A stretch of DNA of 56,400 nt from Bacteroidales bacterium (GCA_015493215.1 WGDP01000205.1:1-56400); one strand, 5' to 3'. Positions 13,144 to 49,168 are shown, numbered from the stretch's first letter. Notes: generated by a model not told the origin, from the letters alone. Program-made: numbers and translations.

Positions 13144-13269
13144 TTTATAAATTGTTACCCTACCCCAACCACCGAAATAAAAGTTTTTATTCCAACGATT
13201 GCCTGTTTTACTTACTTTTCACTACTTTTGGCATCAGATAAAACAAACATTAATTCCGATTACCATCGG

Positions 13270-13300
13270 AGAAATATTGCTGAAAACAATATTTCTTTTA
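13270..13300 (+). promoter_or_regulatory. Terminator-like hairpin in the corA 5' leader (possible attenuator)
   Basis: agaaatattg-ctgaaaa-caatatttct forms a 10-bp stem followed by tttt, 18 nt before the corA ATG. It is preceded by a second hairpin, tccgat-tacc-atcgga (13255-13270), and by a TACTTTTG -7 box at 13223-13230. Confidence 0.35.
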
Positions 13301-13317
13301 ACATAGGAGATTAACCT

Positions 13318-14229: not shown

Positions 14230-14363
14230 CATTTTCTGCATTTCATAAAAATAGCCTATATTTACAGTCGCAACAAAACCAGAATTACAGAAGCTAAATT
14301 TCCCAAAGTTTAAACCGATGACAATCGATTCGTGTCGATTGCCGCAATATACTCACATCCGGC

Positions 14364-16937: not shown

Positions 16938-16988
16938 TCAAACCCGAACATATTTTTTTTAAATACCTTTTTGTCTGCCATTTCTGAC

Positions 16989-16996
16989 TAATTTTG
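16989..16996 (+). promoter_or_regulatory. Candidate -7 promoter box (TAATTTTG) for glnS
   Basis: TAnnTTTG match 25 nt upstream of the glnS ATG. Confidence 0.35.
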
Positions 16997-17020
16997 CAGC
17001 TTTAAAAAACTGAACACAAA

Positions 17021-18731: not shown

Positions 18732-19466
18732 TTAAAAACTGTTACTTACCAGCCAAAATACACCTACAATTACAGCAGCCAACCCACCGTAAAAACGGAG
18801 GTTGGTGAGTAATTTTTTGCTTTTGGCAAAACGCTCCATCTTGTTGAGTTTGCCTATAATAACGGTATAAATAACCATGGCGGTAATAATACCGATGCCA
18901 AAGCCCACAATATATTGTACCGATTCAAATTTTGATTCGTAGCCCAAAACCGGCAGCATCAGTAAAAAATGAGATATTCCGGCAAAGCCGTGGATAATGC
19001 CCACCAACAGTGCCATGCTGTTGTTCTGCCTTGCTGTTTTATGATGTTCATGGGTGTGAGCCGAATCGTTATAGGCTTCGTCTTCATGTGCATGGCCGTG
19101 AATATGAAGATACTCACCGGTTTCGTCCTGATGTTTGTGAGGGTGGACATGATTTTTTTTATCGTGCTTAATACGATAAAAAGACCATATACCAATGCCA
19201 ATCAGGATTACGCCTACCATTTGCTCGCCATACTGCGATATCTTTTCAACTGGGATATACTCTTTGAACCAGTAAAACAAAACCCCGATAAGCAACATGC
19301 CGATTACATGGCCTGTTCCCCAAAAAAAACCAATTTGCCAGTGCTTTTTTTCGGTATCAAAAACGATGGGGGTTACTGCCGCAAGATGATCGGGGCCGCT
19401 TAGCACATGCACAATGGCTGCGGTTAAACCCATTAACCAGGGAAAAAGATGGATGAATGATTCCAT
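18732..19466 (-). CDS. HupE/UreJ- or NicO-like nickel/cobalt transporter with His-rich loop
   Basis: About six TM helices, HVLSGPDHLAAV and GTGHVIGM motifs, and a central loop HDKKNHVHPHKHQDETGEYLHIHGHAHEDEAYNDSAHTHEHHK. Confidence 0.55.
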   Translation of the reverse strand: MESFIHLFPWLMGLTAAIVHVLSGPDHLAAVTPIVFDTEKKHWQIGFFWGTGHVIGMLLIGVLFYWFKEYIPVEKISQYGEQMVGVILIGIGIWSFYRIKHDKKNHVHPHKHQDETGEYLHIHGHAHEDEAYNDSAHTHEHHKTARQNNSMALLVGIIHGFAGISHFLLMLPVLGYESKFESVQYIVGFGIGIITAMVIYTVIIGKLNKMERFAKSKKLLTNLRFYGGLAAVIVGVFWLVSNSF

Positions 19467-21098: not shown

Positions 21099-21183
21099 TT
21101 TATAATTTTGGTATAATATTTGCAAATTTTTAAGTGAACGGCAAAAATAAGCAATGTTTATTAATGCACAATACCTTAAAGTT

Positions 21184-22683
21184 ATGAGAACACTAAAAAT
21201 AAATATAGCAGGGCTGGCTTTTTTGGCGGCCATTTTTTTAAGCTCGTGTGCCACTACGGGTTATACGCCTCAGGATGATGTCTATTATTCGCCGGATGAT
21301 CAGGTAGTACCTGCCCGAACTACTGTGGTGGCAAAGCAAACCAAACCCACGGCAGGAACCGTTTATGAAGGAGATGTGCAGGAAGCTCAGGCCAACGGCT
21401 CATACGAAAACACCACTGCCGAACCTTCAAATGATACTGTTTATTTGGATGATGATGCCTATTATAACATTGATTACGCTTCACGGTTACGTAAATTTAG
21501 CGATGATAACAACGATGATAACTATTTTGACGATGGTGGTTGTACTTCATACGCTTCAAGTCCCAATGTTTCGTTAAGTTTTGGATTTGGTACCGGCTTT
21601 GGTTGGGGATACCCCTATTATGGCTGGGGCTATCCTTCGTATGGCTGGGGTTATCCTTATTATGGTTGGGGATATCCATCATACGGATGGGGCGGAAGTT
21701 ATTGGAGCGGTTACAACAACGGTTACTGGAATGGTTATTGGGACGGATACTATGGAGGTGGCTACTACCCGGGATATCCCGGATACACACCCGGATACCC
21801 TTATTATCCTGATTACGGTTACCGTAATACGGTTCAATACGGGCCAAGAGGCGGAGGCCGTGGTTATGGCGGAGGCCGAACAGGCGGGTCGGACGTTCCG
21901 GGTGCAGGCAGAGGCATGAGCAGTAGTAATTATAGCGCTTCACGAGGAAGAAGCTCGGTTTCTTCGGGCAGAACCAAAGCCGCTGTTGCAGCAGGCAGTA
22001 GCCCTTCAGCAAGTACTCGCCGGCGTCCTAAAGAATCGGTTAGGGTTAACAATCAAAATAAGCCTCAGAACAGGGTTTCTGCGCAAAAAAAGCAAACGAT
22101 TAACAACAAACAGGCCAGGCCGAAAAAGGCAACGGTCAGATATACCAAACCTGTTGACTCGCGGCAGCATGCAAGTGCAAGGCCTGTGAAAAGAACCAAT
22201 GTAAAACCTGCTGCAAACCGTACCACCAGGCCTTCATCTACTACTTATGTAAGACGACAAAGCCACGCTCCAAAACGATATAGCAAGCCAAAGGCTTACC
22301 GGAGTTTACCTTCGCAACAGCCCCGCTCAAGTAAAGAGTATGTGCGTCCCTCTTCCAGAACTTCAAATAATAGAACCTACAAACCACGACCTTCGGGGTC
22401 AAATGCCAGAAAGGCAACAATAAATAACGGTTCAAGGGTTTCGCCCGGAGCAACTACCCATCGCAGGACAACCACACGCAGTTCGGCCACAAGAACCAAG
22501 AGTTATAGCAGCCCGTCGCGAAGCAGAAGTTCTTCAAGATCGTACTCTTCTCCAACAAGGAGCAGTAGTTCGCGCAGTAGCAGTTCAAGCCACAGTTATT
22601 CCGGTAGTAGTAGTTCAGGATCGTCAGGAAGCAGCTCACGCAGCAGCGGTGGTGGCGGATACCGTGGTGGTGGCCGTCGTTAA
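21184..22683 (+). CDS. Low-complexity lipoprotein: YGWGYP repeats, Gly/Tyr-rich core and a long Arg/Ser/Pro/Lys-rich tail
   Basis: Lipoprotein signal [22 protein letters not shown] and four tandem (Y)GWGYP(Y/S)Y units encoded at 21601-21692. The C-terminal ~270 aa are almost entirely R/S/K/P/T. The frame stays open for 1.5 kb. Confidence 0.6.
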
Positions 22684-22737: not shown

Positions 22738-24201
22738 ATGAAACGAGTTATCATTATATCCATAATTCTTTTGGCAGGCGTAACTACTTATGCGCAGTAT
22801 GCCAGCGATGCACTGCGGTTTTCACAACAGTATTATCAGGGTACAGCCCGAAACATGGCGGTGGGAAGTGCCTTTGGCGCGTTGGGTTCCGACCTTTCAG
22901 CATCAGCTATTAATCCGGCAGGGCTTGGCCTGTTCCGAAACAATGAATATACCATCACCCCCGAAATATTTACAAAAAATATTTCATCAATTTATCAGGG
23001 AAAAATGATTGATGACTCCCGAACCGTTTTTGACATTAGCAACTTTGGCCTCCTCAGCAGTATAAAAACGGGTAATAACAGCAGCGGATTTAAGTTTGTC
23101 CAGTTTAGTTTTTCCTTAAACCGGCTGAATAATTTTAACTCAAACCGAACTATTGTTGGCGATAATATTAACAGTTCCAAGCTGGACGTTTATCTGGAAC
23201 AAGCGGATGGTATCAACTATACTGATATCGAAGATAATTATAGCGGCTATTACTCTTATGATTTGACACCTGCCTGGAATGCCTTTTTAATTGATACTGT
23301 TCCTGGTTATACCGATTGGTATTATTCGCCGGTGCCCTTCGCCGGAGTTCAGCAAAAGGAGGTAACGCATAGCAGAGGGTCAACCAACGAATGGGATTTT
23401 TCAATGGCCGGAAACTTTAATGATAAACTCTATTTGGGTATCACTTTGGGCTTACCCTATACACGTTTTTTCAGAAATACCTATTACGGTGAATCGGATG
23501 TTGCCGATACCATTCCCTATTTTGATTCATGGACGGTTAACGAATACCTGACTACCACCGGATTTGGTTTTAACATAAAATTGGGAATGATATATCGTCC
23601 GGTTAACTGGTTGCGAATCGGTGGAGCTTTTCATTCGCCCACCTGGTACTCCTTAACTGATAACTGGAATACCAATTATGATTCAAACCTCGAATGGGGT
23701 TCTTTTTCAAGCTCGTCACCACAGGGTGTTTTTAATTATAAATTATATACGCCCATGCGTGCCATAGGCGATGTGGCGCTGATAATAAAAAAATACGGAT
23801 TTCTTACCTTTGAATATGAGTACGTTGACTATGGTACGGCAAGGTTTAAAGCTTCGGGTGTTGACTATGCTTCGGGCACCAATGCCGACATAAAGAATTA
23901 CTATAAAGGGGTTAGTAACTTTAGGGGTGGCCTTGAAGTCAGGGCAGGCATGTTTAGTTTTAGAGGAGGTTACGCCCTTTACGGAAGTCCCTATAAAAAT
24001 AACTTAAACGACGGTAAAAAACAATATTTTACCGGAGGCCTTGGATACAACAACGGACGGTTTAGTGCCGACTTTGCTTTTGTTTACGGAAATAAAAAAA
24101 GCAATTATTACCTTTATACATCCGATAATTTTGCCACCGAACCGGCTGCCCTGACTGAAAAAGATTATCAGGCGGTGTTAACATTTAGTTATAGGTATTA
24201 A
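22738..24201 (+). CDS. Outer membrane transport protein, FadL/OMPP1/TodX-like
   Basis: Signal peptide plus an N-terminal hatch-like motif (GTARNMAVGSAFGALGSDLSASAINPAGLG), a long beta-barrel pattern and a terminal TFSYRY. Confidence 0.65.
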   Translation: MKRVIIISIILLAGVTTYAQYASDALRFSQQYYQGTARNMAVGSAFGALGSDLSASAINPAGLGLFRNNEYTITPEIFTKNISSIYQGKMIDDSRTVFDISNFGLLSSIKTGNNSSGFKFVQFSFSLNRLNNFNSNRTIVGDNINSSKLDVYLEQADGINYTDIEDNYSGYYSYDLTPAWNAFLIDTVPGYTDWYYSPVPFAGVQQKEVTHSRGSTNEWDFSMAGNFNDKLYLGITLGLPYTRFFRNTYYGESDVADTIPYFDSWTVNEYLTTTGFGFNIKLGMIYRPVNWLRIGGAFHSPTWYSLTDNWNTNYDSNLEWGSFSSSSPQGVFNYKLYTPMRAIGDVALIIKKYGFLTFEYEYVDYGTARFKASGVDYASGTNADIKNYYKGVSNFRGGLEVRAGMFSFRGGYALYGSPYKNNLNDGKKQYFTGGLGYNNGRFSADFAFVYGNKKSNYYLYTSDNFATEPAALTEKDYQAVLTFSYRY

Positions 24202-32969: not shown

Positions 32970-33476
32970 TTACTTCGAAAAAACGTAATCGGTTTCTGCT
33001 CCGGCATGACAGCTGACACATGCACCATTTAATAGTGCTGTCCCTCTCATGTCGTTTCCCTGCTCATCCTTGGCAATGGTGCCGTCGGATGTTAAAACAA
33101 ACCACTCCCAGTCACCACCTTGCGTGTTAAAGCTATTGCCCCGTTTTGCCATGGCGACAATCATGTTTACAGTGCCCTCATCATTTTTCGATTCTTTTAC
33201 AATTACAGCTCCCACCGGGTATGATCCTCCCGAAGCTGCAACATTGTCTTTAAAATAAATGTATCGTGTTACTGTGCTGTCGTTTCCAAAATGAGCTGCT
33301 CCCAACGAAGGGTCGGGGCCAATGTTCTCGGCAACTTTTGTAAACGATTTAAACCCCGTAAATGTTTGATTGTTGGCAATAAACTCCTGTGGAGCTTCCT
33401 CTTCTTTTTTACACGAAGTACTCAATAAAAGCCCCGACAAAAGGAGTGTGAAGGCAAAAAATAATTTCTTATTCAT
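32970..33476 (-). CDS. Cytochrome P460 / cytochrome c'-beta family lipoprotein
   Basis: Lipoprotein signal (LLLSTSC) and a single CXXCH near the C-terminus in the context GGDWEWFVL...NGACVSCHAGAETDYVFSK. This parallels the P460 pattern G.W.F...C..CH....D.VF. VIVKE aligns with the VTVKE segment that carries the Lys cross-link in Nitrosomonas P460. Confidence 0.6.
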   Translation of the reverse strand: MNKKLFFAFTLLLSGLLLSTSCKKEEEAPQEFIANNQTFTGFKSFTKVAENIGPDPSLGAAHFGNDSTVTRYIYFKDNVAASGGSYPVGAVIVKESKNDEGTVNMIVAMAKRGNSFNTQGGDWEWFVLTSDGTIAKDEQGNDMRGTALLNGACVSCHAGAETDYVFSK

Positions 33477-33802
33477 AATAGTTTGGTTAATTATTAATGC
33501 TGATTAGTCGTCGGGTTTTTAAAATCCTTACTTTATAAATCACTTTTTTTATCATTGTTTTAGCCCTCTATAAATCTTGACTTGATAAAAATGATAAATA
33601 ATAATTTCTTGTGACCATAGTCACTGATTGCTATTAGTTACCCTACTATTTTTGCCGGGTTTTTAATTTATTTATTCAATCAGTATTGTTTGAGTTTTAA
33701 AATATAATCCATTTAAAATAAGGGGAATATATAAAAATATATGCATACATATAATAATCTATATTTACCTTCGTTTTCAATTGTAAATGTAAATATGAAA
33801 TT

Positions 33803-35152
33803 ATGAACAACAAAAATCTGCAATTTAACAAGCAAAATGCTATTTTATTAGGACTGGCAGCAATCTTTTTTGCCCTGTTTTTAACCACTGTTTCGGGTTG
33901 TAAACACGACCCCTACATAAACCCCGACACGCCACCCAGCATAAGCAATAACTGTGATGCTGACACTGTTTATTTTCAAAATGTTATTTTACCACTTTTG
34001 GTAACCAATTGTGCCACATCGGGTTGTCACGACAAAAATACGCACAAAGAGGGTGTAATTCTTACTGATTACAGTTCCATAATTAACACCGGAGGCATTA
34101 ACATCACCAACCCTTCCGACAGTAAAATATACCGGCAGTTAAACAAAACTGACGACGACAGGATGCCTCCGCCGCCGGCAAACGCTTTTACCGAATCTCA
34201 AAAAAACAGCCTCCTTACATGGATTGAACAAGGAGCAAAGAACAACGAATGCGTTGAAAATACCGAATGCGACACCTCTAACGTTACCTTTAACGGCAGT
34301 GTTGTTCCCATTTTTGAAAACAACTGCTACGGATGCCACAGCCAACCTACCCCTGCCGGTAACATTGATTTAAAAAATACCGACGATTTGGCTCGCATTG
34401 TCAATAATGGTGCACTGGCCGGTTCGGTATTACATCAGGCAGGTTATTCTCCCATGCCAAAAGGATATAACATGACCCAATGTGAGGTCAGAACCATTGT
34501 TATATGGGCAAACGATACTGTCTTCCCCGGTGGTGGTGGCGGTGGTGGTGGAAACCCCGACCCCTGCGATCCGGATACCACTTATTTTCAAAATACCGTT
34601 TTGCCGTTGTTGGTTTCCAATTGTGCCACTTCGGGATGCCACAATCAGCAATCGCACGAACACGGAGTTATTTTAACCGACTATGCTTCAATTATTCAAA
34701 CAGCGGAGGTAAAACCCGGCGACCCGTCAGGAAGTAAACTGTATAAAGTTCTTTTTGGCGGCGACAAAAGAGACGATGATATAATGCCTCCCCCGCCTGC
34801 CAGCCCGTTTAGTGCTGAACAAAAGCAAATAATTTACGACTGGATAAGCCAGGGAGCATTAAACAACAGTTGCAACAGCGGTTGCGATACATCCACCGTT
34901 ACTTTTTCGGGAACAATTTGGCCGCTTATGCAAACATGGTGTACAGGATGCCACAGCGGAAGCAATGCCGGCGGAAACATTCACATCGAAAATTATAATG
35001 ATGTGGTTGCCATTGCCAACAATGGTAAGCTAATGGGTACGGTTTCCCACGCTCCCGGCTATGTGCCCATGCCTAAAAACGGCGACAAATTTTCGGATTG
35101 TCAAATAGCTGAAATCCGAATCTGGATCGAAAACGGAACACCTAATAATTAA
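33803..35152 (+). CDS. Secreted lipoprotein with four cytochrome-c-like modules (2 x CX4CH, 2 x CXXCH), internally duplicated
   Basis: Lipobox TVSGC and an A-B-(Gly8)-A-B module order. The A module is YFQN.(I/V)LPLLV.NCATSGCH...GVILTDY.SII...MPPPP. The B module is CDTS.VTF.G...P......C.GCHS......GNI....Y.D...I.NNG.L.G.V.H..GY.PMPK. It resembles the planctomycete cytochrome C (PSCyt1-like) domain. Confidence 0.65.
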   Translation: MNNKNLQFNKQNAILLGLAAIFFALFLTTVSGCKHDPYINPDTPPSISNNCDADTVYFQNVILPLLVTNCATSGCHDKNTHKEGVILTDYSSIINTGGINITNPSDSKIYRQLNKTDDDRMPPPPANAFTESQKNSLLTWIEQGAKNNECVENTECDTSNVTFNGSVVPIFENNCYGCHSQPTPAGNIDLKNTDDLARIVNNGALAGSVLHQAGYSPMPKGYNMTQCEVRTIVIWANDTVFPGGGGGGGGNPDPCDPDTTYFQNTVLPLLVSNCATSGCHNQQSHEHGVILTDYASIIQTAEVKPGDPSGSKLYKVLFGGDKRDDDIMPPPPASPFSAEQKQIIYDWISQGALNNSCNSGCDTSTVTFSGTIWPLMQTWCTGCHSGSNAGGNIHIENYNDVVAIANNGKLMGTVSHAPGYVPMPKNGDKFSDCQIAEIRIWIENGTPNN

Positions 35153-35163
35153 AGCTTCATACA

Positions 35164-35535
35164 ATGAATAAATTGATAATGATTGCAGGCTTGTTTGGAG
35201 TACTGCTGTTAAGTTCGTGCTACTACGACAATATGGAAGACCTTTATCCTGATACGGGAGGGGTATGCGACACAACCAACGTTACCTTTTCGCAAACCGT
35301 TTTACCTGTTCTACAATCACATTGTACAGGTTGCCATAGTGGAAGTGCCCCTTCGGGAAATATCTCTATTGTAAATTATAACGATGTTGTTCTGTTGGTT
35401 CATAGTGGCAGGCTTTTGGGAACTATCCGGCACGAACAGGGTTACTCACCCATGCCAAAAGGTGGCAACAAACTCTCCAATTGCGATATTGCAAAGCTGG
35501 AGAAATGGATTTCAGATGGCATGCCTGACAATTAA
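35164..35535 (+). CDS. Small lipoprotein with one CXXCH cytochrome-c-like module (paralog of the B module)
   Basis: Lipobox LLLSSC, then CDTTNVTFSQTVLPVLQSHCTGCHSGSAPSGNISIVNYNDV...GYSPMPKGGNKLSNCDIAKLEKWISDG, which is collinear with the B modules of the upstream gene. Confidence 0.65.
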   Translation: MNKLIMIAGLFGVLLLSSCYYDNMEDLYPDTGGVCDTTNVTFSQTVLPVLQSHCTGCHSGSAPSGNISIVNYNDVVLLVHSGRLLGTIRHEQGYSPMPKGGNKLSNCDIAKLEKWISDGMPDN

Positions 35536-35570
35536 CGCTTTTGCATTACGCAACTAAAAAAAATATAACG

Positions 35571-35990
35571 ATGATAAAAAAAATAATTCTGGCAATATTA
35601 ATACTTGGTATACTTGGTGCCCTGTATGGTTGGTTTTTTGTTTACAACAAACCCCATACCAATTTTGAAAAAAGCAAACCCGATTTTGAGGTAACCGCCA
35701 CCGGCTTATATAACGATTACGTTTCGGGAAAAGGAAACCGTTACAACGGGAAAGTGTTAAAATTAACAGGAACCGTTAAAAAAACAGATGATGGCGATAC
35801 GCTGGTAACGCTGGTTTTTGTTTTTAACGAAGGAATGTTTGGCGACGAAGGAATAAGATGCACACTGTTACCAAAATATAACCCGCAGATTCGTAAATTA
35901 ACCCTGCCCGCTACAATAACACTAAAAGGATTTTGTGCCGGATACAACGGAACCGATGTTGTTTTAGAACAGTGCAGTTTATTAAAGTAG
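35571..35990 (+). CDS. Membrane-anchored OB-fold protein (tRNA_anti-like family)
   Basis: N-terminal anchor MIKKIILAILILGILGALYGWFFVYNKPH, then ...YNGKVLKLTGTVKK...TLVTLVF, the usual layout of the Bacteroidota tRNA_anti-like OB-fold family. Confidence 0.5.
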   Translation: MIKKIILAILILGILGALYGWFFVYNKPHTNFEKSKPDFEVTATGLYNDYVSGKGNRYNGKVLKLTGTVKKTDDGDTLVTLVFVFNEGMFGDEGIRCTLLPKYNPQIRKLTLPATITLKGFCAGYNGTDVVLEQCSLLK

Positions 35991-36008
35991 TTTATTAATT
36001 ATAATTAT

Positions 36009-36569
36009 ATGAATATGAAAAGAATATTGGTTGTTTTAGCGGTGTTATTATCATTTACCGTTAGCACACAAGCACAACGATACATCACTAAATCGGGTAA
36101 TATTACCTTTTTTTCTGACGGGCCGCTTGAAAAAATAGAAGCTGTTAACAACAAAGTAAATGCTGCACTCGATTCACAAAGCGGCATGTTTGTTTTTAAA
36201 GTTTTAATGAAGTCGTTTGTTTTTGAAAAGGCGTTGATGCAAGAGCATTTTAACGAAAATTATGTTGAAAGCGACAAGTATCCCGTGGCCACATTCAAAG
36301 GAAAAGTGACTAATATAAGTGATGTTAATTTTAATAAACCGGGCGATTATCAGGCTAAAGTTACCGGACAGCTTACCATTCACGGGCAAACCCACCCGGT
36401 AAAAACAACAGGTACTTTTACAGTTTATGACAAAGGAGTAAAAGGAAAGTCGCAGTTTACCATAAAACTGATAGATTACAACATCGAAATTCCATCCATA
36501 GTTTCGGGTAAAATTGCCAAAGAAATATTAATTACCGTAAATATCGACCTTAAACCGTTAAAACAATGA
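36009..36569 (+). CDS. YceI-family (polyisoprenoid-binding) periplasmic protein
   Basis: Signal peptide followed by a YceI-like eight-strand lipocalin pattern: GNITFFSDGPLEKIEAVNNKVNAALD ... ATFKGKVTNI ... LTIHGQTHPV ... FTIKLIDYNI. Confidence 0.8.
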   Translation: MNMKRILVVLAVLLSFTVSTQAQRYITKSGNITFFSDGPLEKIEAVNNKVNAALDSQSGMFVFKVLMKSFVFEKALMQEHFNENYVESDKYPVATFKGKVTNISDVNFNKPGDYQAKVTGQLTIHGQTHPVKTTGTFTVYDKGVKGKSQFTIKLIDYNIEIPSIVSGKIAKEILITVNIDLKPLKQ

Positions 36570-37462
36570 TAAAAGGATTAATTACAATTGCAGCCCTGTT
36601 TATGCTTTCCCTTCAGGCAACAATGGCACAGGATGATATGATGAATCTTTTCGACAGCCAACCCGTTACCGAATATACATCAGCTACATTTAAAAGCACC
36701 AATGTGGTTATCGGCCAATCGGTTAAAGTTCCGGCAAAAGGAACCATGCTGTTAAATATTCAGCACCATTTTGGCCCTGTAAATTCGGGATTTTATAACT
36801 TTTTCGGATTTGACCAGGCTGTAACACGCCTCGGGCTAAGATATGGCGTTACCGACTGGTTGGCCATTGGCATTGGACGCACAACCCAAAACAAAACATG
36901 GGACGGGTCGTTAAAAGTAAAGCTCCTGCGCCAAAGCAGCGGGGCAAGGGTTATGCCTGTAACTGTTACCTATTTTGGCCTCATGGGGGTTATATCCCTT
37001 AAAAACCCTGAAAATAACCGCTACGCCTATTTCGCAAACAGACTTTCTTATGTAAATCAATTAATTATCGCTCGAAAATTCAGTTCTGCTTTGTCGCTAC
37101 AGCTTATCCCAAGTTATGTACATTGGAACCTTACAGAAACCAAAGCAGACCCCAACGACATCCTTTCACTTGGTGCTGCAGGACGGATTAAATTATCGAA
37201 TCGAATTAGTTTTAATTTTGAGTATCATTACGTACTAACCCAAAAAATTGCCGACGCTTATCACAACTCGCTTTCGTTGGGCATTGATATTGAAACAGGC
37301 GGCCATGTCTTTCAGCTGTTTTTAACCAATTCGGCAGCCATTACCGAGCAATATTTTATTCCCTACACCGATGGCGACTGGCTTAAAGGAGACATTCATA
37401 TAGGGTTCAACATCATCAGAACCTTTACCATTGTAAAGCCAAAAGAGTTTGCTAAATACTAG
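36566..37462 (+). CDS. Outer-membrane beta-barrel protein (DUF5777-like)
   Basis: Signal peptide (SLQATMAQ), alternating beta-strand pattern and the segment NIQHHFGPVNSGFYNFFGFDQAVTRLGLRYG. Its start overlaps the yceI stop (ATGA). Confidence 0.5.
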   Translation: MIKGLITIAALFMLSLQATMAQDDMMNLFDSQPVTEYTSATFKSTNVVIGQSVKVPAKGTMLLNIQHHFGPVNSGFYNFFGFDQAVTRLGLRYGVTDWLAIGIGRTTQNKTWDGSLKVKLLRQSSGARVMPVTVTYFGLMGVISLKNPENNRYAYFANRLSYVNQLIIARKFSSALSLQLIPSYVHWNLTETKADPNDILSLGAAGRIKLSNRISFNFEYHYVLTQKIADAYHNSLSLGIDIETGGHVFQLFLTNSAAITEQYFIPYTDGDWLKGDIHIGFNIIRTFTIVKPKEFAKY

Positions 37463-37483: not shown

Positions 37484-38119
37484 TTAGCAGCCTCCCGATG
37501 CGGCTTTCTCTTTTTTCTTGCGGCGAACCTTTACTTTTTTTGTGGTTTTAGTACTGGTTTCATTGGCAACAGTTCCCGATTTTTTGGCCACTTCGGCAAA
37601 ATCGTATTTGGCAATGCCTTTTAAACAGGTTTTTTCTGTTTTCTGTAAATTATCTTTGTGTGATGCGTAATAGTTATACCCACCCAGCAGCACAAAAGTA
37701 TTTTCGTATCCTATCTGCCGGAATAACATCCAGGCACCATTGGCCTGCAGTTGGTCGTCGTGATAAAAAACCACTTTAACGCCGCTTTTTTTCCATTGAT
37801 CCATCTGTTTAATGTTATCTTTTTCCAGCAACTTAACGGCTGTAATGTTGATGGATCCGGGAATATGGCCTCTGGCAAAATCAAAATTATTTCTAATGTC
37901 AATTAATACCACTTCTCCCGATTTATCGTTGAGCACCTTTGCCAACTCATAAGGATGAAAACAACCCTTATGGCCTATTACCATATCCACTGTTTGCTGT
38001 GGTGTTAAAGCATATTTAAATCGTGGTTTTTTCATGGTTATCCATCCAAAAACAATAACCAATGCAAAAAGCAAAATGGTAATTAATGTTCGTTTTGGGT
38101 TTCTTTCGTGTACATGCAT
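37484..38119 (-). CDS. Membrane-anchored rhodanese-like protein without canonical active-site Cys; basic C-terminal tail ending SGGC
   Basis: N-terminal TM helix and rhodanese fold markers (VVLIDIRNNFDFARGHIPGSINI ... VVFYHDDQLQANGAW). The catalytic-loop Cys position holds His. The C-terminus is KVRRKKKEKAASGGC*. Confidence 0.7.
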   Translation of the reverse strand: MHVHERNPKRTLITILLFALVIVFGWITMKKPRFKYALTPQQTVDMVIGHKGCFHPYELAKVLNDKSGEVVLIDIRNNFDFARGHIPGSINITAVKLLEKDNIKQMDQWKKSGVKVVFYHDDQLQANGAWMLFRQIGYENTFVLLGGYNYYASHKDNLQKTEKTCLKGIAKYDFAEVAKKSGTVANETSTKTTKKVKVRRKKKEKAASGGC

Positions 38120-38140: not shown

Positions 38141-38761
38141 TTAACAACCTCCTGAAGCGGCTTTTTCTTTTTTCTTTCTTCTTACCTTTATCTTGGCTTT
38201 TTTAACACCGGTATCGGTTTTAATGCTGTTTCCTCCGGTAAAGTACATTCCGGCGGCTTTGCGAAACTGATAAGTTTCAAAAGCCGTTTTTGGTGCCGTT
38301 TCAGGAGGTTCAACCGGGTTAATGATGGTTTCTATCCAACAATTAAGGCCACCCTTCATCACATAAATGTTTTTGTAACCAAGCCTGGTTGAAATTACCC
38401 ACGCCTGATCGGACATAATATCATCGTTACTAAAAAATACGGCATTCATATCCTCAATGCCAAGGTTATCCTGGCCTTCCGGTGTAAGGATGTCTTTTAA
38501 CGGAACATTAACGGCATCGGGAAGCGAAAATTTATCGTATTCATCGGCAGGCCGTACATCAATCAACTCAAGGGTAGGGTCGTGTTCGATAATCATTTTT
38601 GCCACCTGATCGGTAGTTACGTACCTAGATGGCTGTGTAATATCAAGCAACAATTTTTCTGGCTTAACTTCATGACTAACCAACTGCTTTTTAGGAACAA
38701 AAAAGGTTCCCAGAGCCAAAAGCAGCATCAAAACGGTAAGAAATATATAATTTTTATTCAT
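38141..38761 (-). CDS. Membrane-anchored/secreted rhodanese-like protein without canonical active-site Cys; identical C-terminal tail ending SGGC
   Basis: N-terminal hydrophobic segment and rhodanese markers (LELIDVRPADEYDKFSLPDAVNVPL ... AVFFSNDDIMSDQAW). The catalytic-loop Cys position holds Ser. The C-terminus is KVRRKKKEKAASGGC*. Confidence 0.7.
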   Translation of the reverse strand: MNKNYIFLTVLMLLLALGTFFVPKKQLVSHEVKPEKLLLDITQPSRYVTTDQVAKMIIEHDPTLELIDVRPADEYDKFSLPDAVNVPLKDILTPEGQDNLGIEDMNAVFFSNDDIMSDQAWVISTRLGYKNIYVMKGGLNCWIETIINPVEPPETAPKTAFETYQFRKAAGMYFTGGNSIKTDTGVKKAKIKVRRKKKEKAASGGC

Positions 38762-38765
38762 AATA

Positions 38766-39368
38766 TTAGAATTTATATTCTTTGGTATTTTTTCTTACTT
38801 TCTTTTCTATTTCGGCACTAACCCAAAAAGCGGCAAGAGCAATTACCGTAAACCCAAAGGCAAACCATGGAGCTGCAATGCCGGTTACATCGGTAAGTGT
38901 AACATTGCCCATGCTGCCACTGTAATAGTAATCTTTAAACAGCGGAAAGCTCTCTCCGAAAATAAAGATTCCTATAAATAGACCGATGGCAAAGAAAAGG
39001 GCATCCATTTTACCAATGGCAATGGCGGTAAAACTGGTGCCGGGGCAAAAACCGCCCATGACAAAGCCAATGCCCATGATTACCGATCCCAGTATCATTG
39101 GCGACAGATAGGTTGGCAAAATAAATATTTTAGACAGGTCGAGCCATCCAAAATAATCGAAATAGAGTAATCCGACCATTGCAACAATGACAGCGGTAAA
39201 AAAGACGCGAAGCACCACAAAGTTGTAGCCATAAAAAACACCGGCTAAATTTCGGGATGACGAAAATCCGGAAGCTTCGAGCAAAAAACCGAAAGCGATA
39301 CCAATTAATATGGCAATTACAAAGTTCCAGTCTCCGGTAATTATTTCATTTGGTATTAAAGGTCCCAT
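38766..39368 (-). CDS. YeeE/YedE-family sulfur-compound transporter, half-size subunit
   Basis: Polytopic, Gly-rich membrane protein with the conserved Cys motif MGGFCPGTS typical of the YeeE/YedE (sulphur transport) family. Confidence 0.8.
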   Translation of the reverse strand: MGPLIPNEIITGDWNFVIAILIGIAFGFLLEASGFSSSRNLAGVFYGYNFVVLRVFFTAVIVAMVGLLYFDYFGWLDLSKIFILPTYLSPMILGSVIMGIGFVMGGFCPGTSFTAIAIGKMDALFFAIGLFIGIFIFGESFPLFKDYYYSGSMGNVTLTDVTGIAAPWFAFGFTVIALAAFWVSAEIEKKVRKNTKEYKF

Positions 39369-39388: not shown

Positions 39389-39922
39389 TTATATCCACAG
39401 TTTTCTAAAAAAGTAAGCCACGGCATAACCGGTTCCGAATATTCCGAGCATAACAATTACACCGCCAAACGAGAAGGATGCAGAACCCACCAAAGCAGCA
39501 CCGCTGGTACAACCTCGTCCAAACTGGCTGCCAAAACCAAACAGTGCGCCGCCAAGGACGGCAAAAATCAGACGTTTTGAACTTGTAGTGTGTTTACCAT
39601 GTTCAATTCTGAATTTTTTAATCCTTCCGTAAATAACACCCGATAACAATCCTCCTATTAATATTCCAAACGATTCATAAACCAGCCAGTTGTTCATGGG
39701 TGATTTATCTTTGGGAATATATTTACTAAAGTAGGGATTGTTTTCGGCATGTTGCGGAGCAATTGCGTTTACAGTAGTTACAACAGTACTTTTAACCGAG
39801 CCACTGGCACCAAGGCCGCGTCCGGTAATATAAAAAGTAACAACAACCAACAGCCCCAGTAAAACGCCCCCGAAATAGGGGTTCAGATAGTGAGGCTTTT
39901 CATTAATTTTATGTTTATTCAT
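39389..39922 (-). CDS. YeeE/YedE-family sulfur-compound transporter, half-size subunit
   Basis: Polytopic membrane protein with GRGLGASG and the FGRGCTSGAALVG Cys motif of the YeeE/YedE family. It pairs with the adjacent half. Confidence 0.8.
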   Translation of the reverse strand: MNKHKINEKPHYLNPYFGGVLLGLLVVVTFYITGRGLGASGSVKSTVVTTVNAIAPQHAENNPYFSKYIPKDKSPMNNWLVYESFGILIGGLLSGVIYGRIKKFRIEHGKHTTSSKRLIFAVLGGALFGFGSQFGRGCTSGAALVGSASFSFGGVIVMLGIFGTGYAVAYFFRKLWI

Positions 39923-44085: not shown

Positions 44086-45615
44086 CTAAACTTGCGCTTT
44101 TTTAAGCTCTTCTTCAGCTAGTTTGCGGTCTGTTTTATCAACAATATACCCTTCAACACCAACTATTTTACCATTTTCCACAACAGGAGTCATGGTAATA
44201 GAATGATATCCAATAGAGCCATCTTTACAGTAGCGACGGGTTATTCCCAAAGGAATGGTTTCGCCTTTCATTACTTTTTCAAACGATTTTTTTAGTTTAA
44301 CAAAGTCTTCTTTGGTACGGCTTAATGAATAATGCTTGCCAATAATTTCATCTTTGGAGTCATATTTATAAAGTCGGAGCCAGGTATCGTTAACTTCCTG
44401 ATAAAAACCCTGACTGTCAATACGGAAATAACCCACATCTTTAGATTTGACAATTTGCTCATAAAACACATTGGATTTGTGCTCTGTTGCAATTTTCTTT
44501 TCAAGGGCTTTTTCGGCTTCTACCTGAGGGGTGATGTCAATAATAAACCCTTCTAATCCTATAATATTTCCATCTTTATCTTTAATAGGTGCAGCTGAAA
44601 CGGTATGATAGCCAATGGTTCCGTCTTTACAAACGCGCTCAACCCTTTCGCCGGTAATTATTTCACCTGAAAGAATCTTATCAACTAATGCGGTTATCTG
44701 TTTTTTGCCTTCGGGGGTTCTGTCAAGCGTTACATCTGTTCCAATAACACTTTTTTTATCGGTACATTTGTAAAGCTTCAGCCAAACTTCGTTAACCTCC
44801 TGATACTTGTGATCTTTACCAATCCGGAAGTATCCCACATTGGAGCTAAGCAGTTTTTCGCGAAGTCGTGTTGATTCGGTGTTGATACCCAGCTTTTCAA
44901 CCACATCATCGAAAGCAGTTTCAAACACGCCCTCTTTTTCTATTGTTCCCCGGCCACTGATACCTTTTCTACTGGTAATTAGGGCAACTTTCAGGTTCTC
45001 TTCCAAAGCAAGTTCCGCATCTTCATCCGACATCTCTTCCCAACCGGTAAGCATTGCTTTGATAGCAGAAAGTGGCCTGTGTCCGGTAGTTGTTAAATAA
45101 ACATGGCCAATAACAAAACCTAACAAAAGAAAGGCTCCAAAAGTATGAAGGTAAGCAACAGGTTGGAGGCTTCCCACAACACTTTGGTCAACCAGCGAAA
45201 CATAATACATGTACACCAAACCGCTAAGCACGACGATTGGAATAATCAATATGCGAAGGCCTAAATAGGTCATGCGCTGTAACGGATTAAACTTATTGTA
45301 AACCGTTTTACGGGTGGGGTGGGGTGCATTACTAAAAATGCCGGTGATATAATACCTGATTTGTGCTTTTAGTAACTTGGTTGACGGAACGTACTGACGC
45401 CACTCGCCGGTTGTCATATTCCAAAACTGTGTAAAAATAATCAGAATGATAAATGACCAGGCCAGATTGCGGTGAATGAAAACTGCTTTTTCATATCCCA
45501 GCAATGTGTAAGTACCATGAACTTCAAAACCGGTAACAGCCAGCAATAAAATCAGCAAGGCCTGTGTCCAGTGCCAGAAACGTTCGTATCCTTTATATAT
45601 TAATACTTTTTTCAT
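44086..45615 (-). CDS. Fusion protein: PhsC/Ni-Fe-hydrogenase-type di-heme cytochrome b (4 TM) plus two tandem PAS domains
   Basis: The N-terminal ~200 aa carry ERFWHWTQALLILLLAVTG, IHRNLAW, NPLQRMTYLG and LHTFGAFLLLGFVIGHVYL (PF01292-like). Two ~120-aa repeats follow, starting VGYFRIGKDHKYQEVNEVWLKLYK and VGYFRIDSQGFYQEVNDTWLRLYK, each ending in a PAS-type ...DG(T/S)IGYH...G.(I/V)(I/V)G(L/V)EG(F/Y)I(I/V)D(I/K)T. Confidence 0.75.
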   Translation of the reverse strand: MKKVLIYKGYERFWHWTQALLILLLAVTGFEVHGTYTLLGYEKAVFIHRNLAWSFIILIIFTQFWNMTTGEWRQYVPSTKLLKAQIRYYITGIFSNAPHPTRKTVYNKFNPLQRMTYLGLRILIIPIVVLSGLVYMYYVSLVDQSVVGSLQPVAYLHTFGAFLLLGFVIGHVYLTTTGHRPLSAIKAMLTGWEEMSDEDAELALEENLKVALITSRKGISGRGTIEKEGVFETAFDDVVEKLGINTESTRLREKLLSSNVGYFRIGKDHKYQEVNEVWLKLYKCTDKKSVIGTDVTLDRTPEGKKQITALVDKILSGEIITGERVERVCKDGTIGYHTVSAAPIKDKDGNIIGLEGFIIDITPQVEAEKALEKKIATEHKSNVFYEQIVKSKDVGYFRIDSQGFYQEVNDTWLRLYKYDSKDEIIGKHYSLSRTKEDFVKLKKSFEKVMKGETIPLGITRRYCKDGSIGYHSITMTPVVENGKIVGVEGYIVDKTDRKLAEEELKKAQV

Positions 45616-45635: not shown

Positions 45636-47297
45636 TTAATGCTTCTTTTTACTGCTTGTAACTCTTAAGAATCCATGAATGCTTACTCCTAATAAAACAA
45701 GAATAAGAAAGATTAAGCCTGCGTTATCGAGCAGTGAACTTTTGTCTCTGCCGGGAAGGTAAAAACCGGTCAGGTTTTTTAACCTGCTGTCGGTGGCGTT
45801 ATGACAGTCGGCACATTCCAAGGCTTTATCTGAAGGCGAAACTTCATGACTCAGAGGCCAGATGGATTCCGTTTTCAGGAAAGAGTATTGTCCGCTAAAA
45901 GGTAAGCCGATATAGTCCATCCCTTTGGTACAGGCAACTTTCCAATTATAATCGGCCCAAAGGGCACCGCTTCCTTTTTCATGGCTGGCGAGCTTAGGTT
46001 GAATCAGGAGCATATTTACCGGGTCATAAGGTTGGGTTCCTCTCATGATTTTCACGGGCCATATTTTAGAGGGATGGTTGGGATCTGCCGGGTTAACATT
46101 ATCCTGATAAGAACCAAACAAAGGATTTAATATCAGCGGGTGAATAGTATCTTTAATTTTATCGTGAAGCAAGTGGTGATCAGCTGTTCCGTTGAACCAC
46201 ACATATTCAGGTTTTACATTTTTTTTAAAAACTGCACCACCATGACGGGAGTCATACTCGATGTCAACATCTTTATAGGTCTTTCCATCGTATGTGTAAG
46301 TGTGTCCGGGTATCTCTTCATCAAATATCGGTTTTCCGTTTTTATCCATTTTGGCAGCCGTGTTCCATGTCCAAATAATTTTGGTATGAAACATTTTCGC
46401 GTAAGTAGGAATATGACACGTTTGGCAAGCGATAGTTTTAAAGTGGTTGTTGAGCAATTCACTTTTATGCGGTTTAGCCGTGTGGCATTCCACACAGGTT
46501 GCTCGGTTGTTCGCGGAAGAAGCAACGGAATAGGCATGTCCCGTGATGTTATGATTTTCTGTTTTGTGACAATCCTGACAACGCATGTTTTTGGCATCTT
46601 TTCCTTTGGAAGCCATGTGGACATCAACATCGCGGGTGCAATTCAACAAGCCCATTTCCAAATCACCGTGTTTTACATTATTACCACCGCCACCAACAAA
46701 ATGGCAACCGCCACAATTATTTTTACGCGGTTGACCCACATGTTGGGCAATATTGTTTAAATCGGTACCCACGGCAGGCAAACCGGCTTTGGGATTGTTG
46801 GAACTTGTACATGGATTTGATTTGTGATAAGTTCCGGTATTATCGTGACAAACCACACAATCGATGTTGTTCTGGTTATGGAAATCAAAATTCTTATCAC
46901 CGTATCCATAGCCCGCGTGACACATGGAGCAGAGATTTTCATTCGAGTTGACTCCAATACAAAAATCATTCAGTAAATTCTTTTTTCCCAGGTTAAACAC
47001 GCCTCTTCCCGGAATAGTATCGCTTTGTTCCCATTTCCAGTGGGGTGTTTTCATAAACTCTTTTCCGCGGCCGTTGTGGCAACTCAGGCATGCTTTGGTC
47101 ATATCCTGAGGTGTTTCAAATTTTTGTTGTAAAACGGCAAATTTAGAGTGATCCACCGGAATGGAATCGTGTTTTAAGCTAATTTCCTTTGACGGGAAAT
47201 AATCCCTGTCCTTATCACCATTGTAGTTAAATACAATCCAAAGAATAATAATCCAGGGAATGATGATGATAAAAATAATTTCAAGTATCTTTTTCAT
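45636..47297 (-). CDS. Octaheme c-type cytochrome (tetrathionate-reductase Otr / multiheme nitrite-hydroxylamine reductase superfamily) with N- and C-terminal TM segments
   Basis: Eight CXXCH motifs (CLSCH, CSMCH, CVVCH, CGGCH, CQDCH, CVECH, CQTCH, CADCH). Seven lie in the first ~300 aa and the eighth lies ~190 aa further on. There are hydrophobic helices at both termini. Confidence 0.8.
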   Translation of the reverse strand: MKKILEIIFIIIIPWIIILWIVFNYNGDKDRDYFPSKEISLKHDSIPVDHSKFAVLQQKFETPQDMTKACLSCHNGRGKEFMKTPHWKWEQSDTIPGRGVFNLGKKNLLNDFCIGVNSNENLCSMCHAGYGYGDKNFDFHNQNNIDCVVCHDNTGTYHKSNPCTSSNNPKAGLPAVGTDLNNIAQHVGQPRKNNCGGCHFVGGGGNNVKHGDLEMGLLNCTRDVDVHMASKGKDAKNMRCQDCHKTENHNITGHAYSVASSANNRATCVECHTAKPHKSELLNNHFKTIACQTCHIPTYAKMFHTKIIWTWNTAAKMDKNGKPIFDEEIPGHTYTYDGKTYKDVDIEYDSRHGGAVFKKNVKPEYVWFNGTADHHLLHDKIKDTIHPLILNPLFGSYQDNVNPADPNHPSKIWPVKIMRGTQPYDPVNMLLIQPKLASHEKGSGALWADYNWKVACTKGMDYIGLPFSGQYSFLKTESIWPLSHEVSPSDKALECADCHNATDSRLKNLTGFYLPGRDKSSLLDNAGLIFLILVLLGVSIHGFLRVTSSKKKH

Positions 47298-47499: not shown

Positions 47500-48213
47500 C
47501 TAAATATGCTTGTCAAGATAGTATTTAAACTCAGGAAGCCTGTTTTCATCGCAATGTTTTGAATAAACTGCGATAAAGTTCATCATCTCATCGCGGCGCG
47601 CCAACATGGCATAGGCAGCATTAAACATATTAAACCCGCAATTGTTTTTAATTTGTTCAATAACACTTTCAAATTCGTCAAATTCGAGGTTTACGGGCAA
47701 TTTAATAAAATGACGATTTTTGTCGTTTACATCGGCATAAACTCCTTCCGAAATTAAAGTCATTTCAGCATGTTTTTTAAAATGCACAATGCTATTATAG
47801 GGCTGAATATGTTTTGTGTGTTTAACAAATTCAACATCCAATTGTTTTAAATCATCTAAAAACGGCTTAATGCTGCTTACTTCCTGGGTTCTTATGCGTA
47901 TGCAATTATGCTGTTTATTTAGAAAGCTCAACTGTCCGGGCGAAATATGAAGGTTAATATTTAATTTATTCCGCACCTTAAACGAATGTTGGATAACCCA
48001 ATCCTGAAAACAAGTAATGGGATGTTTTGTAATAATGTAGAGGTGATGGTCGCTGGCGTGTTCAAGGTTTTCGGGAAACCCGTTTTTTGAAAAGTAGCCG
48101 GGTTCGGGATCGGATTCAATAATTAAAACTTCATTTTTTGTTGAAAAAGGAGACAGTGCCAAGTCCAACCGCTCGGCAAAACATACATACCCTTCTATAT
48201 TATTGTTTTTCAT
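47500..48213 (-). CDS. Hypothetical protein (no recognisable motif)
   Basis: 237-aa ORF with no competing frame and no signal peptide. I could not match it to any family by eye. Confidence 0.45.
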   Translation of the reverse strand: MKNNNIEGYVCFAERLDLALSPFSTKNEVLIIESDPEPGYFSKNGFPENLEHASDHHLYIITKHPITCFQDWVIQHSFKVRNKLNINLHISPGQLSFLNKQHNCIRIRTQEVSSIKPFLDDLKQLDVEFVKHTKHIQPYNSIVHFKKHAEMTLISEGVYADVNDKNRHFIKLPVNLEFDEFESVIEQIKNNCGFNMFNAAYAMLARRDEMMNFIAVYSKHCDENRLPEFKYYLDKHI

Positions 48214-48406: not shown

Positions 48407-49168
48407 TTATTTCTTTAATGAAACAACGGTTCCACTTGTTGTAATTTTTAATTTTTTATCGGGATAGAACAGGGTTATTCCGGCATTGTTTAAAGCAACG
48501 GCTTTTGTGCTGTTAAATAGGAGCAATGACTTGGCCTTTAAACCAACAAATACAACGCCTTGTTTTTCAGCGGTATTTTGGATAAACGATTTATTGTTGT
48601 TTAGCAGAGAGAGTTTATCCGGCATCAGGTTTTTATGCAGCTGAAGTGCCGGTTTTATTTTTTTGTTTTGGAAATAATATTTTCCAATCAAAGCAGAACT
48701 TTGGCCAATACCCGATATTAAAGCACCCTTTTTAGCTGCTTGCTGTAAGGCTTTTTTTAAAACCTCATTTGTTACAAAGAGAGGAAAAGAGGATTTTTTC
48801 ATGTCGGGTAAAACAATAATTTCAGCATTTTCGATGGTAAGCACATCTGTATTTTTCAGTATTTGGTTATTCTTAAAATTAAGAATATGCACCGCCATTA
48901 TTTCGTGTTTGTAAAACCGCTTTTTAATATTGGTTTCCTGTTTGGCGGCAGCAGGCACACCCAATATCACCACATATCCTTCAAGGCGGATGTTGGAATT
49001 GTTTATGGAAGCAGTAACTATTTCATCCAAAGGGTTTTTTGCTCCCGATACAAGAAACAAACCATTGCCGTTGTTGCTTAACAGCGGTTTGTGATTGTTT
49101 GATGTACACGATAACAACAGTAAAGTGAAAACTATTCCGAGCAAAAAGGTAGTCTTTTTTAAGGTCAT
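48407..49168 (-). CDS. Lipoprotein, possibly cyanophycinase/peptidase S51-like (class I glutamine amidotransferase fold)
   Basis: Lipobox LLLSC. The pattern VVILGVP ... AEIIVLPD ... GALISGIGQSSALIG loosely resembles the S51 layout, but the catalytic Ser context is degenerate. Confidence 0.35.
   Translation of the reverse strand: MTLKKTTFLLGIVFTLLLLSCTSNNHKPLLSNNGNGLFLVSGAKNPLDEIVTASINNSNIRLEGYVVILGVPAAAKQETNIKKRFYKHEIMAVHILNFKNNQILKNTDVLTIENAEIIVLPDMKKSSFPLFVTNEVLKKALQQAAKKGALISGIGQSSALIGKYYFQNKKIKPALQLHKNLMPDKLSLLNNNKSFIQNTAEKQGVVFVGLKAKSLLLFNSTKAVALNNAGITLFYPDKKLKITTSGTVVSLKK

Follow-up and report, generated by a model that had tools for sequence, protein, structure and literature searches.

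A recurrent cassette of cytochrome c-like lipoproteins, a YceI lipocalin and a DUF5777 barrel in Bacteroidota, a candidate outer-envelope electron-transfer module

Gene content of the locus

In a 56,400 nucleotide (nt) stretch of DNA from a Bacteroidales bacterium (GCA_015493215.1, WGDP01000205.1:1-56400; the whole stretch is hereafter called the window), five adjacent genes at positions 33803-37462 make up a cassette for two predicted c-type cytochrome lipoproteins, a membrane-anchored protein with an oligonucleotide/oligosaccharide-binding (OB) fold, a secreted YceI-family lipocalin and a DUF5777 outer-membrane beta-barrel. The set recurs in Bacteroidota and is read below as a putative electron-transfer module of the outer envelope. 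The genes are, in order:

g1, 33803-35152, + strand, 449 amino acids (aa): four-module c-type cytochrome lipoprotein (predicted)
g2, 35164-35535, + strand, 123 aa: one-module (type B) monohaem cytochrome c lipoprotein (predicted)
g3, 35571-35990 from ATG, + strand, 139 aa: membrane-anchored OB-fold protein (tRNA_anti-like, PF12869)
g4, 36009-36569, + strand, 186 aa: secreted YceI-family lipocalin
g5, 36566-37462, + strand, 298 aa: DUF5777 outer-membrane beta-barrel

Intergenic distances are 11 nt for g1/g2, 35 nt for g2/g3 (from the ATG of g3) and 18 nt for g3/g4, the stop of g4 and the start of g5 overlap in an ATGA at 36566-36569, and 21 nt separate g5 from a convergent rhodanese gene (37484-38119). 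These values and the common direction of the five genes, given in an initial annotation of the window, were all recovered when read again from the DNA. An alternative TTG start of g3 at 35541 would extend the product to 149 aa. Each of the five products carries an export or anchoring signal, as had been annotated, namely the lipoboxes VSGC (g1) and LSSC (g2), an uncleaved N-terminal hydrophobic membrane anchor (g3), and signal-peptidase-I-type signals cleaved at TQA/Q (g4) and TMA/Q (g5), all read from the sequence. The annotated domains (cytochrome-c-like, OB-fold, YceI and DUF5777-like) likewise held in Pfam.

Cytochrome lipoproteins g1 and g2

Pfam assigned g1 to PSCyt1 (PF07635; two stretches, 60.5 bits, cut-off 22) and, also above threshold, to Cytochrome_CBB3 (45.8 bits), and gave a weak Cytochrome_CBB3 match and nothing else for g2. 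NCBIfam returned sub-threshold matches of both proteins to "LIC11213 family lipoprotein" and nothing further, and the single literature match for LIC11213 was a Leptospira reverse-vaccinology screen. The haem motifs are CATSGCH, CYGCH, CATSGCH and CTGCH in g1, and CTGCH in g2. By internal duplication, g1 consists of four tandem monohaem modules arranged as (A-B)x2 with a Gly8 linker between the halves; module A is of PSCyt1 type with CX4CH (CATSGCH) and MPPPP, and module B is class-I-like with CXXCH and SPMPK. The halves are 52% identical (A1/A2 58%, B1/B2 46%), and g2 is a lone B module with 56% identity to B2 of g1.

A CXXCH, CX4CH or CX3CH motif was retained in 129 of the 130 cytochrome-like open reading frames (ORFs) of the homologous loci described below, with a motif count that tracks the module count, and CXXCH and CX4CH interchange at the same position among orthologous small proteins. 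Invariant in 38 homologues of g2 are the lipobox Cys19, C54xxC57H58, M97-P98 and the pair C35/C107, which may form a disulfide. A profile of the g2 family searched against the sequences of the PDB matched cytochrome c6 (3dr0, E-value 2.4e-4) over the whole chain (residues 9-91) and PccH (4rlr, E-value 0.002), the matches listed being cytochrome c6, PccH and similar chains; the corresponding search with g1 gave no match among PDB sequences. The Pfam PccH model was below threshold on g1 and stronger on multi-module relatives. In an AlphaFold2 model of g2 without haem (predicted local distance difference test, pLDDT, 77.7), helices precede the CXXCH motif and lie in mid-chain and at the C-terminus, as in class I cytochromes, but Foldseek gave no significant match for this model. 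In sequence, g2 and the B modules of g1 have the marks of class I, i.e. an N-terminal CXXCH, a distal Met in the C-terminal half and profile similarity. The proposal of the initial annotation that the CX(n)CH proteins are c-type cytochromes is backed by the near-universal motif, the invariant CXXCH and Met-Pro and the match to cytochrome c6; g1 and g2 look like genuine c-type cytochromes, with haem binding as a prediction. The likeness of the g2 family to PccH, a monohaem cytochrome of Geobacter sulfurreducens, and to cytochrome c6 is distant and lies at profile level, and unlike these proteins g1 and g2 carry a lipid anchor and are built from repeated modules, with CX4CH in module A.

The module is widespread, as a profile search of 1.84 billion representative proteins found it in 15,195 representatives with 1-8 modules per protein. 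Among these relatives were one 7-module protein with a type IX secretion system (T9SS) sorting domain and two proteins of 1,600-1,800 aa with fn3 domains, which suggests that the module is used at the cell surface. The small cytochromes share a conserved acidic motif, C-Y-Y-D-(N/K)-E-E-(D/E)-L-Y-P, directly after the lipidated Cys. It resembles the surface-export signal of Bacteroidetes lipoproteins, in which a polar or basic residue is followed by two or three acidic residues, with an optimum of C-X-K-(D/E)2 (PMC5080379). Surface exposure of g2 is accordingly a possibility on this likeness.

Conservation of the cassette in Bacteroidota

A genome scan yielded 80 loci, distributed over Bacteroidales, Marinilabiliales, Lentimicrobium, Chitinophagaceae, Hymenobacter, Adhaeribacter, Cyclobacteriaceae, Saprospiraceae, Lewinellaceae and Flavobacteriales. 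Neighbours were counted in the 65 loci with enough flanking sequence by searching six-frame ORFs with the five window proteins (phmmer); these 65 are drawn from Bacteroidales, Chitinophagales, Cytophagales, Saprospiraceae and Flavobacteriales. On the same strand as the barrel were found:

g2-like small cytochrome: 61 of 65 loci (94%)
YceI: 52 of 65 loci (80%)
g1-like cytochrome: 45 of 65 loci (69%)
OB protein: 43 of 65 loci (66%)

The small cytochrome and the barrel are the constant core of the cassette, and the g3-like OB protein (43/65) is its least conserved member. About 23 gene orders were seen, among them g1-g2-g3-g4-g5 (15 loci), g3-g1-g2-g4-g5 (10 loci), g1-g2-g5 (5 loci), g2-g5-g4 and g5-g4-g3. 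Because linkage persists although the order is shuffled, the five genes are regarded as a functional unit. Relatives with barrels 73-74% identical to g5 have all five genes in the same order, with a four-module g1 of 443-448 aa, in unrelated flanks; in three loci with barrels 56-58% identical to g5, cytochrome(s), PF12869, YceI and DUF5777 follow in the same order and the flanks again differ. The clustering exceeds chance, since the same set recurs with the barrel across the phylum. The initial annotation had staked its five-gene module on co-conservation elsewhere, and the neighbourhood profile of the 65 Bacteroidota loci bears it out.

Carriers range from strict aerobes (Hymenobacter, Chitinophaga) to anaerobic sediment Bacteroidales, and cultivable genera among them are Chitinophaga, Hymenobacter, Adhaeribacter and Taibaiella.

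In 24 loci, mostly of aerobic Chitinophagales and Cytophagales, the cassette adjoins an extra YceI gene, a gene for a LytS-type kinase of about 950 aa with Reg_prop/Y_Y_Y domains, and a LytTR regulator gene. The extra YceI gene overlaps the start of the kinase gene, the LytTR gene follows, and the trio is co-directional with the cassette; these loci include L025 (3647-7891), L027, L028, L029, L034, L039-L041, L060, L065, L067, L068 and L076. The extra YceI may be a ligand-presenting partner of the LytS-type sensor. Crp-family regulators adjoin some of the window-type cassettes. Further recurrent neighbours, each in at most 16 loci, were a rhomboid, an S41 peptidase, an LptB-like ATPase (assigned by sequence reading), sigma-54 activators and extracytoplasmic function (ECF) sigma factors, which look like lineage synteny.

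Paralogous cytochrome-barrel operon

Two loci (L042, L044) contain a second pair of small cytochrome and DUF5777 genes 3 kb from a window-type cassette, with a barrel 29% identical to g5. The pair heads an operon located as follows:

L042, 1-5570, - strand; L044; L088-L092, about 8500-17400, + strand: paralogous cytochrome-barrel operon

The gene order is small cytochrome lipoprotein, DUF5777, a small ORF or a monohaem cytochrome c, an anchored cytochrome with seven CXXCH motifs, and cytochrome b561 (PF01292). Next come either 4Fe-4S and NrfD proteins or a multihaem lipoprotein; where the sequence of the latter was read, it showed six haem motifs and a collagen-like linker. An NapC/NrfH-type cytochrome follows in four loci, and a divergent gene for a Crp/Fnr-family regulator lies upstream. 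Five further members of this barrel subfamily on long contigs (56-63% identity) have the same operon, so that the small cytochrome lipoprotein comes first in all seven examined. The pair of cytochrome and barrel is thus repeatedly wired to respiratory electron-transfer proteins linked to quinones. The gene contents of the two types are complementary, as the paralogous type has neither YceI nor the OB protein, and the window type has neither cytochrome b561 nor a multihaem chain, which suggests two alternative feeds to one outer-membrane terminal. The paralogous operon, of which no description was found in the literature searched, is by its gene content a candidate respiratory or extracellular electron-transfer cluster in its own right.

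Outer-membrane barrel g5

The Pfam match of g5 to DUF5777 (PF19089) spans model positions 1-247 of 247 (318 bits, E-value 4.2e-95). Homologues number more than 7,700, nearly all from Bacteroidota where the source is named, and no cytochrome-barrel fusion was seen among the matches listed, which are the top-scoring proteins. No mention of DUF5777 or PF19089 was found in the literature searched. AlphaFold2 modelled g5 from a 50-sequence alignment as 12 strands (pLDDT 71), preceded by a conserved and poorly modelled N-terminal segment (residues 22-56). All Foldseek matches of the model were outer-membrane barrels, generically of 12-14 strands (FapF, OmpG, NanC, COG4313, FadL-type), and with query-normalised TM-scores of about 0.5 or lower none was accepted as a specific structural relative; a profile search of PDB sequences found no solved relative either. 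By strand parity, the conserved residues R88, K117, K119, K171, R207, K209, E219, D241, E243, Q250, H278 and N282 would face the lumen. An interior of this kind, polar and fairly basic, suits a channel for small solutes or a densely packed core, and in our judgement the model makes it unfit as a sheath around a cytochrome.

These features raise the question of a transport system, in which DUF5777 would form the outer-membrane channel for a hydrophobic or anionic small molecule, taken up or exported across the envelope, such as an isoprenoid quinone, a pigment or a lipid. YceI would be its periplasmic carrier, and the part of the cytochromes would be a redox modification of the cargo or an accessory one. 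The best structural matches are indeed small substrate channels, i.e. NanC/KdgM-type barrels (target-normalised TM-scores 0.62-0.66), COG4313 and the FadL-family TbuX, conserved Arg and Lys together with acidic residues occupy the positions assigned to the lumen by strand parity, and the YceI family binds polyisoprenoids and ubiquinone-8. Transport does not, however, account for the presence of a haem lipoprotein beside the barrel in 94% of the loci when YceI is dispensable, nor for the place of the paralogous barrel next to quinol-oxidising and multihaem cytochromes; moreover, no inner-membrane transporter is conserved beside the cassette. We regard this explanation as improbable.

OB-fold protein g3 and YceI lipocalin g4

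The match of g3 to PF12869 covers nearly the whole model (45.2 bits, cut-off 23.5, E-value 9.3e-12), sequence conservation in the family is low, and the search for a solved relative found none. CcmE, a haem chaperone with the same topology of anchor and OB fold, was considered as a counterpart of g3 and found unsupported, as there is no conserved His and conservation is low.

The YceI assignment of g4 (PF04264; 66.1 bits, cut-off 23.7, E-value 5.8e-18) was extended by a family profile, which matched in the PDB 5ixg (deposited as YceI, E-value 3.9e-6), E. coli YceI (1y0g) and 3hpe. A Riemerella paper on iron limitation, found in the literature search, merely lists a YceI gene. Relatives in the YceI family bind polyisoprenoids or quinones, including ubiquinone-8 (PMC8981238, PMC9113575). 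In the BcnA-LcoA systems, which include E. coli yceI-yceJ, a YceI-type lipocalin and a cytochrome b561 detoxify lipid peroxyl radicals in the envelope, and the Neisseria homologue binds ubiquinone-8 (PMC9113575).

The main rival to an electron-transfer function follows from this lipocalin. The cassette could be an envelope antioxidant system, a counterpart of BcnA-LcoA, in which YceI carries quinol or captures lipid peroxyl radicals or oxidised lipids, the c-type lipoproteins replace cytochrome b561 and the barrel reaches the lipids of the outer membrane; its purpose would be envelope protection, not respiration. YceI is indeed present in 80% of the 65 loci and the g4 profile matches 5ixg, and the lipocalin BcnA and the cytochrome LcoA, which are genetically linked or fused, protect against lipid peroxidation (PMC9113575). 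Carriage by aerobes and anaerobes alike agrees with such a function, and the 24 loci with an extra YceI, LytS-type kinase and LytTR regulator would fit a stress-responsive regulon. Against it, the constant core consists of cytochrome and barrel and not of YceI, and the paralogous cassette has no YceI and belongs to a complete operon of respiratory type, which includes NapC/NrfH, NrfD and multihaem cytochromes. Class I cytochromes with His/Met ligands also usually have higher potentials than quinones and are hence poor reductants for them. All considered, protection of the envelope is judged unlikely as the function, while being the foremost competitor.

Genomic surroundings and the psr island

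The features next to the cassette and elsewhere in the window are:

12172-13143: stand-alone Reg_prop beta-propeller protein, 323 aa
14364-16937: hybrid kinase with TPR, HisKA, HATPase and receiver domains
18732-19466, - strand: TauE-like gene
21154-22683 and 22738-24201; 47500-48213 and 48407-49168, both - strand: four ORFs of 237-509 aa without Pfam match
32970-33476, - strand: P460-like lipoprotein gene, divergent from the cassette
33477-33802, no strand: AT-rich intergenic region of 326 bp between g1 and the P460-like gene
37484-38119 and 38141-38761, both - strand: membrane-anchored rhodanese-like proteins
38766-39368 and 39389-39922, both - strand: two half-size ORFs of a YeeE/YedE-type sulfur transporter
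44086-45615, - strand: cytochrome b561 (PF01292) fused to two or three PAS domains
45636-47297, - strand: Cytochrome_cB multihaem protein

The region 33477-33802 is the presumed promoter region of the cassette. Promoter and terminator scans gave there only consensus-level promoter-like matches, not above shuffled sequence.

On the 3' side, the other strand carries the two rhodanese genes, the split YeeE, psrCBA, the b561-PAS fusion and the Cytochrome_cB gene, as the initial annotation had described. On the 5' side lie the divergent P460-like gene, an exporter of OEP, HlyD and ABC-2 components and the methionyl-tRNA synthetase (MetRS) gene, and the remainder of the window is ordinary chromosome (BamA, Skp, UppS, tRNA synthetases, glycosyltransferases). 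The two rhodanese-like proteins share a basic C-terminal tail whose last residue is Cys (...VRRKKKEKAASGGC) and which may be a flexible sulfur-carrying arm, and the same two genes were found in L093 and L094. The two YeeE ORFs match the N- and C-terminal parts of PF04143, and their separation is no frameshift artefact peculiar to the window, because L093, a 94%-identical relative, has the same split. The b561-PAS fusion, which adjoins the Cytochrome_cB gene, has a sensor-like domain arrangement that is unusual in a membrane cytochrome b, and its cytochrome b part is homologous (E-value 1e-18) to the b561 proteins encoded by the paralogous DUF5777 operons. The P460-like gene is regarded as a lineage-specific insertion, because it is absent from this position in L093 and has a homologue in none of the 87 loci screened.

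TPR kinases similar to that of the window flank the cassette in L001 and L084, and genes for glutaminyl-tRNA synthetase (GlnRS) and MetRS lie close to it in L084 and L086; these shared genes suggest that rearrangements took place in the window lineage about an ancestral location of the cassette. In three loci that otherwise differ (L001, 1014-2867; L002, 4413-6287; L003, 1203-3095), genes for an AIRS-domain protein (about 350 aa) and for a TauE-family permease lie a few kb 5' of the cassette, a co-occurrence that may be synteny only.

The initial annotation had pointed out the convergent psr-YeeE-rhodanese operon and a cytochrome b in the same island. If there were a functional tie, the cassette would be an accessory of a polysulfide or thiosulfate respiration island (psrABC, YeeE, rhodaneses) and might, for example, exchange electrons or sulfur species with Psr. 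The convergent arrangement with its 21-nt gap and the retention of the arrangement in L093 can be cited for this view. In L093 the psr island lies beside the cassette, without the P460-like gene. However, a screen of 87 loci to about 10 kb from the barrel found no homologue of the P460-like protein, of Cytochrome_cB or of psrA, psrC, YeeE and the rhodaneses, and the two psrB and cytochrome b561 matches were part of the paralogous operon in L042 and L044. The same five-gene order occurs with barrels of 73-74% identity in unrelated flanks, and the cassette is common in aerobic soil Bacteroidota. The adjacency to the psr island is incidental, because it is kept only in the 94%-identical relative and is absent at 73-74% barrel identity and from the 87 loci, and the tie to the island cytochrome b falls with the same neighbourhood. 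A role as psr accessory is thereby largely refuted and is held to be very improbable.

Comparison with known systems

No characterised system with this gene set was found in the literature searched, in agreement with the initial annotation. The porin-cytochrome conduits Mtr (MtrCAB, Shewanella) and Pcc (OmbB-OmaB-OmcB, Geobacter) and the fused cytochrome-porin Cyc2 resemble the cassette in combining an outer-membrane barrel with c-type cytochromes, which are lipoproteins in the cassette. The likeness extends to the paralogous pair, which sits in an operon with a quinol-oxidising cytochrome b, NrfD, NapC and multihaem cytochromes, and g2 and g5 (123 + 298 aa) look like a split version of a monohaem cytochrome-porin. 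Unlike Mtr and Pcc, the cassette has cytochromes of tandem monohaem, class-I/PSCyt1-like modules instead of tightly packed multihaem proteins, and YceI and the OB-fold protein set it apart from all three systems. The g5 model has about 12 strands, against 26 in MtrB and a predicted number of about 16 in Cyc2. Membership of the cassette in the Mtr/Pcc family was rejected on the barrel, which has about 12 strands and 298 aa where at least 20 strands would be required, and on the monohaem-module cytochromes.

With BcnA-LcoA the cassette shares a secreted YceI lipocalin genetically linked to a cytochrome, and it differs in the c-type lipoprotein partners, in the added outer-membrane barrel and OB anchor, and in that YceI is not constant. 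It was rejected as a member of the BcnA-LcoA/yceI-yceJ type, as no PF01292 gene is found in the cassette or in the type-A loci; the b561-PAS gene of the window belongs to the psr island, on the opposite strand and at a distance of 6.6 kb. The cassette may nevertheless work like an Mtr/Pcc conduit or like BcnA-LcoA though it is a member of neither. Cbp2D and Cbp2E of Cellvibrio japonicus, proposed extracellular electron carriers, link ubiquinone-8-binding YceI lipocalins with cytochromes (PMC8981238), and the giant relatives of the g2 module likewise carry fn3 domains. Unlike the cassette, Cbp2D/E are single multidomain secreted proteins with CBM2, tied to the metabolism of polysaccharides and lytic polysaccharide monooxygenases (LPMOs), whereas the parts of the cassette are separate genes with lipid anchors and an outer-membrane barrel and without a carbohydrate-binding module. 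The "giant porin-cytochrome cluster" of Lentimicrobium is a different cluster with 61- and 20-haem proteins (PMC13013709).

Interpretation as an outer-envelope electron-transfer module

On balance we favour, with about as much confidence as doubt, the reading that the cassette, which is operon-like, is an outer-envelope electron-transfer module built of c-type cytochromes and present across Bacteroidota. In this scheme g1, with four haem modules, and g2, with one, would be exported, lipidated and loaded with covalent haem, and g5 would form an outer-membrane barrel of about 12 strands, with which the small cytochrome is constantly paired. On the model of BcnA/LcoA and Cbp2D/E, g4 would be a soluble periplasmic lipocalin carrying an isoprenoid quinone, presumably menaquinol in Bacteroidota, and g3 an OB-fold protein anchored in the inner membrane, with a possible part in docking or loading the lipocalin. 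Electrons would pass from the quinone pool to YceI-bound quinol, on to the haem chain of g1 and g2, and from there to an acceptor located in the outer membrane or outside it. As for the barrel, it would either admit a small, probably anionic or redox-active substrate or mediator, or anchor the small cytochrome at the membrane. The scheme starts from what was observed, namely the gene set and its recurrence, the retained haem motifs, the family assignments and the cytochrome-barrel pair in quinone-linked respiratory operons; co-transcription of the genes, loading with haem and quinone, topology, the direction of electron flow and the identity of the acceptor are what we infer in it.

The initial annotation had likewise pictured a conduit for electrons or lipid cofactors across the envelope. 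Its general idea is backed by the paralogous operons with their b561, multihaem, NrfD and NapC/NrfH proteins and by the precedents for YceI-cytochrome pairs (PMC9113575, PMC8981238), and what did not stand is the tie to psr or to the cytochrome b of the island.

Several points weigh against an electron-transfer module. The window-type cassette encodes no inner-membrane quinol dehydrogenase, and YceI is missing in 20% and the OB protein in 34% of the 65 loci, although some of these absences may stem from the limited sensitivity of phmmer. With carriers among strict aerobes as well as anaerobes, no single acceptor is obvious. The barrel model is only moderately confident (pLDDT 71), and a barrel of about 12 strands as modelled has in our judgement too little room inside to house a cytochrome in the way MtrA is housed in MtrB. 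For the g2 model, Foldseek gave no significant cytochrome match, the top one being a Shewanella monohaem cytochrome (E-value 4.4), and the acidic motif of the small cytochromes is shifted by two positions from the optimal export signal C-X-K-(D/E)2 (PMC5080379). Haem, quinone, localisation and complex formation are all predictions.

A wider proposal, put forward tentatively and with more doubt than the module itself, is that DUF5777 barrels and the small acidic-tailed monohaem lipoproteins are the outer-membrane terminal of an unrecognised and widespread class of trans-envelope conduits in Bacteroidota, with parts unrelated to Mtr, Pcc and Cyc2. It would be fed by YceI-ferried menaquinol in the window type and by a b561/multihaem chain in the paralogous type. 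Bacteroidota are abundant in soils, sediments, waters and bioreactors, and no outer-membrane conduit of such composition was found for them in the literature searched. The families concerned are annotated throughout as hypothetical or as domains of unknown function, both the barrel (more than 7,700 proteins) and the module (about 15,000 representative clusters). If electrons do reach the outer membrane by this route, DUF5777 would gain a function and YceI a role as periplasmic quinone shuttle to c-type cytochromes, and throughout a major phylum the cassette would mark genomes for redox activity outside the cell or for redox defence of the envelope. Should the conduit class prove true, electron exchange with extracellular acceptors or donors could be open to many Bacteroidota of soils, sediments and waters.

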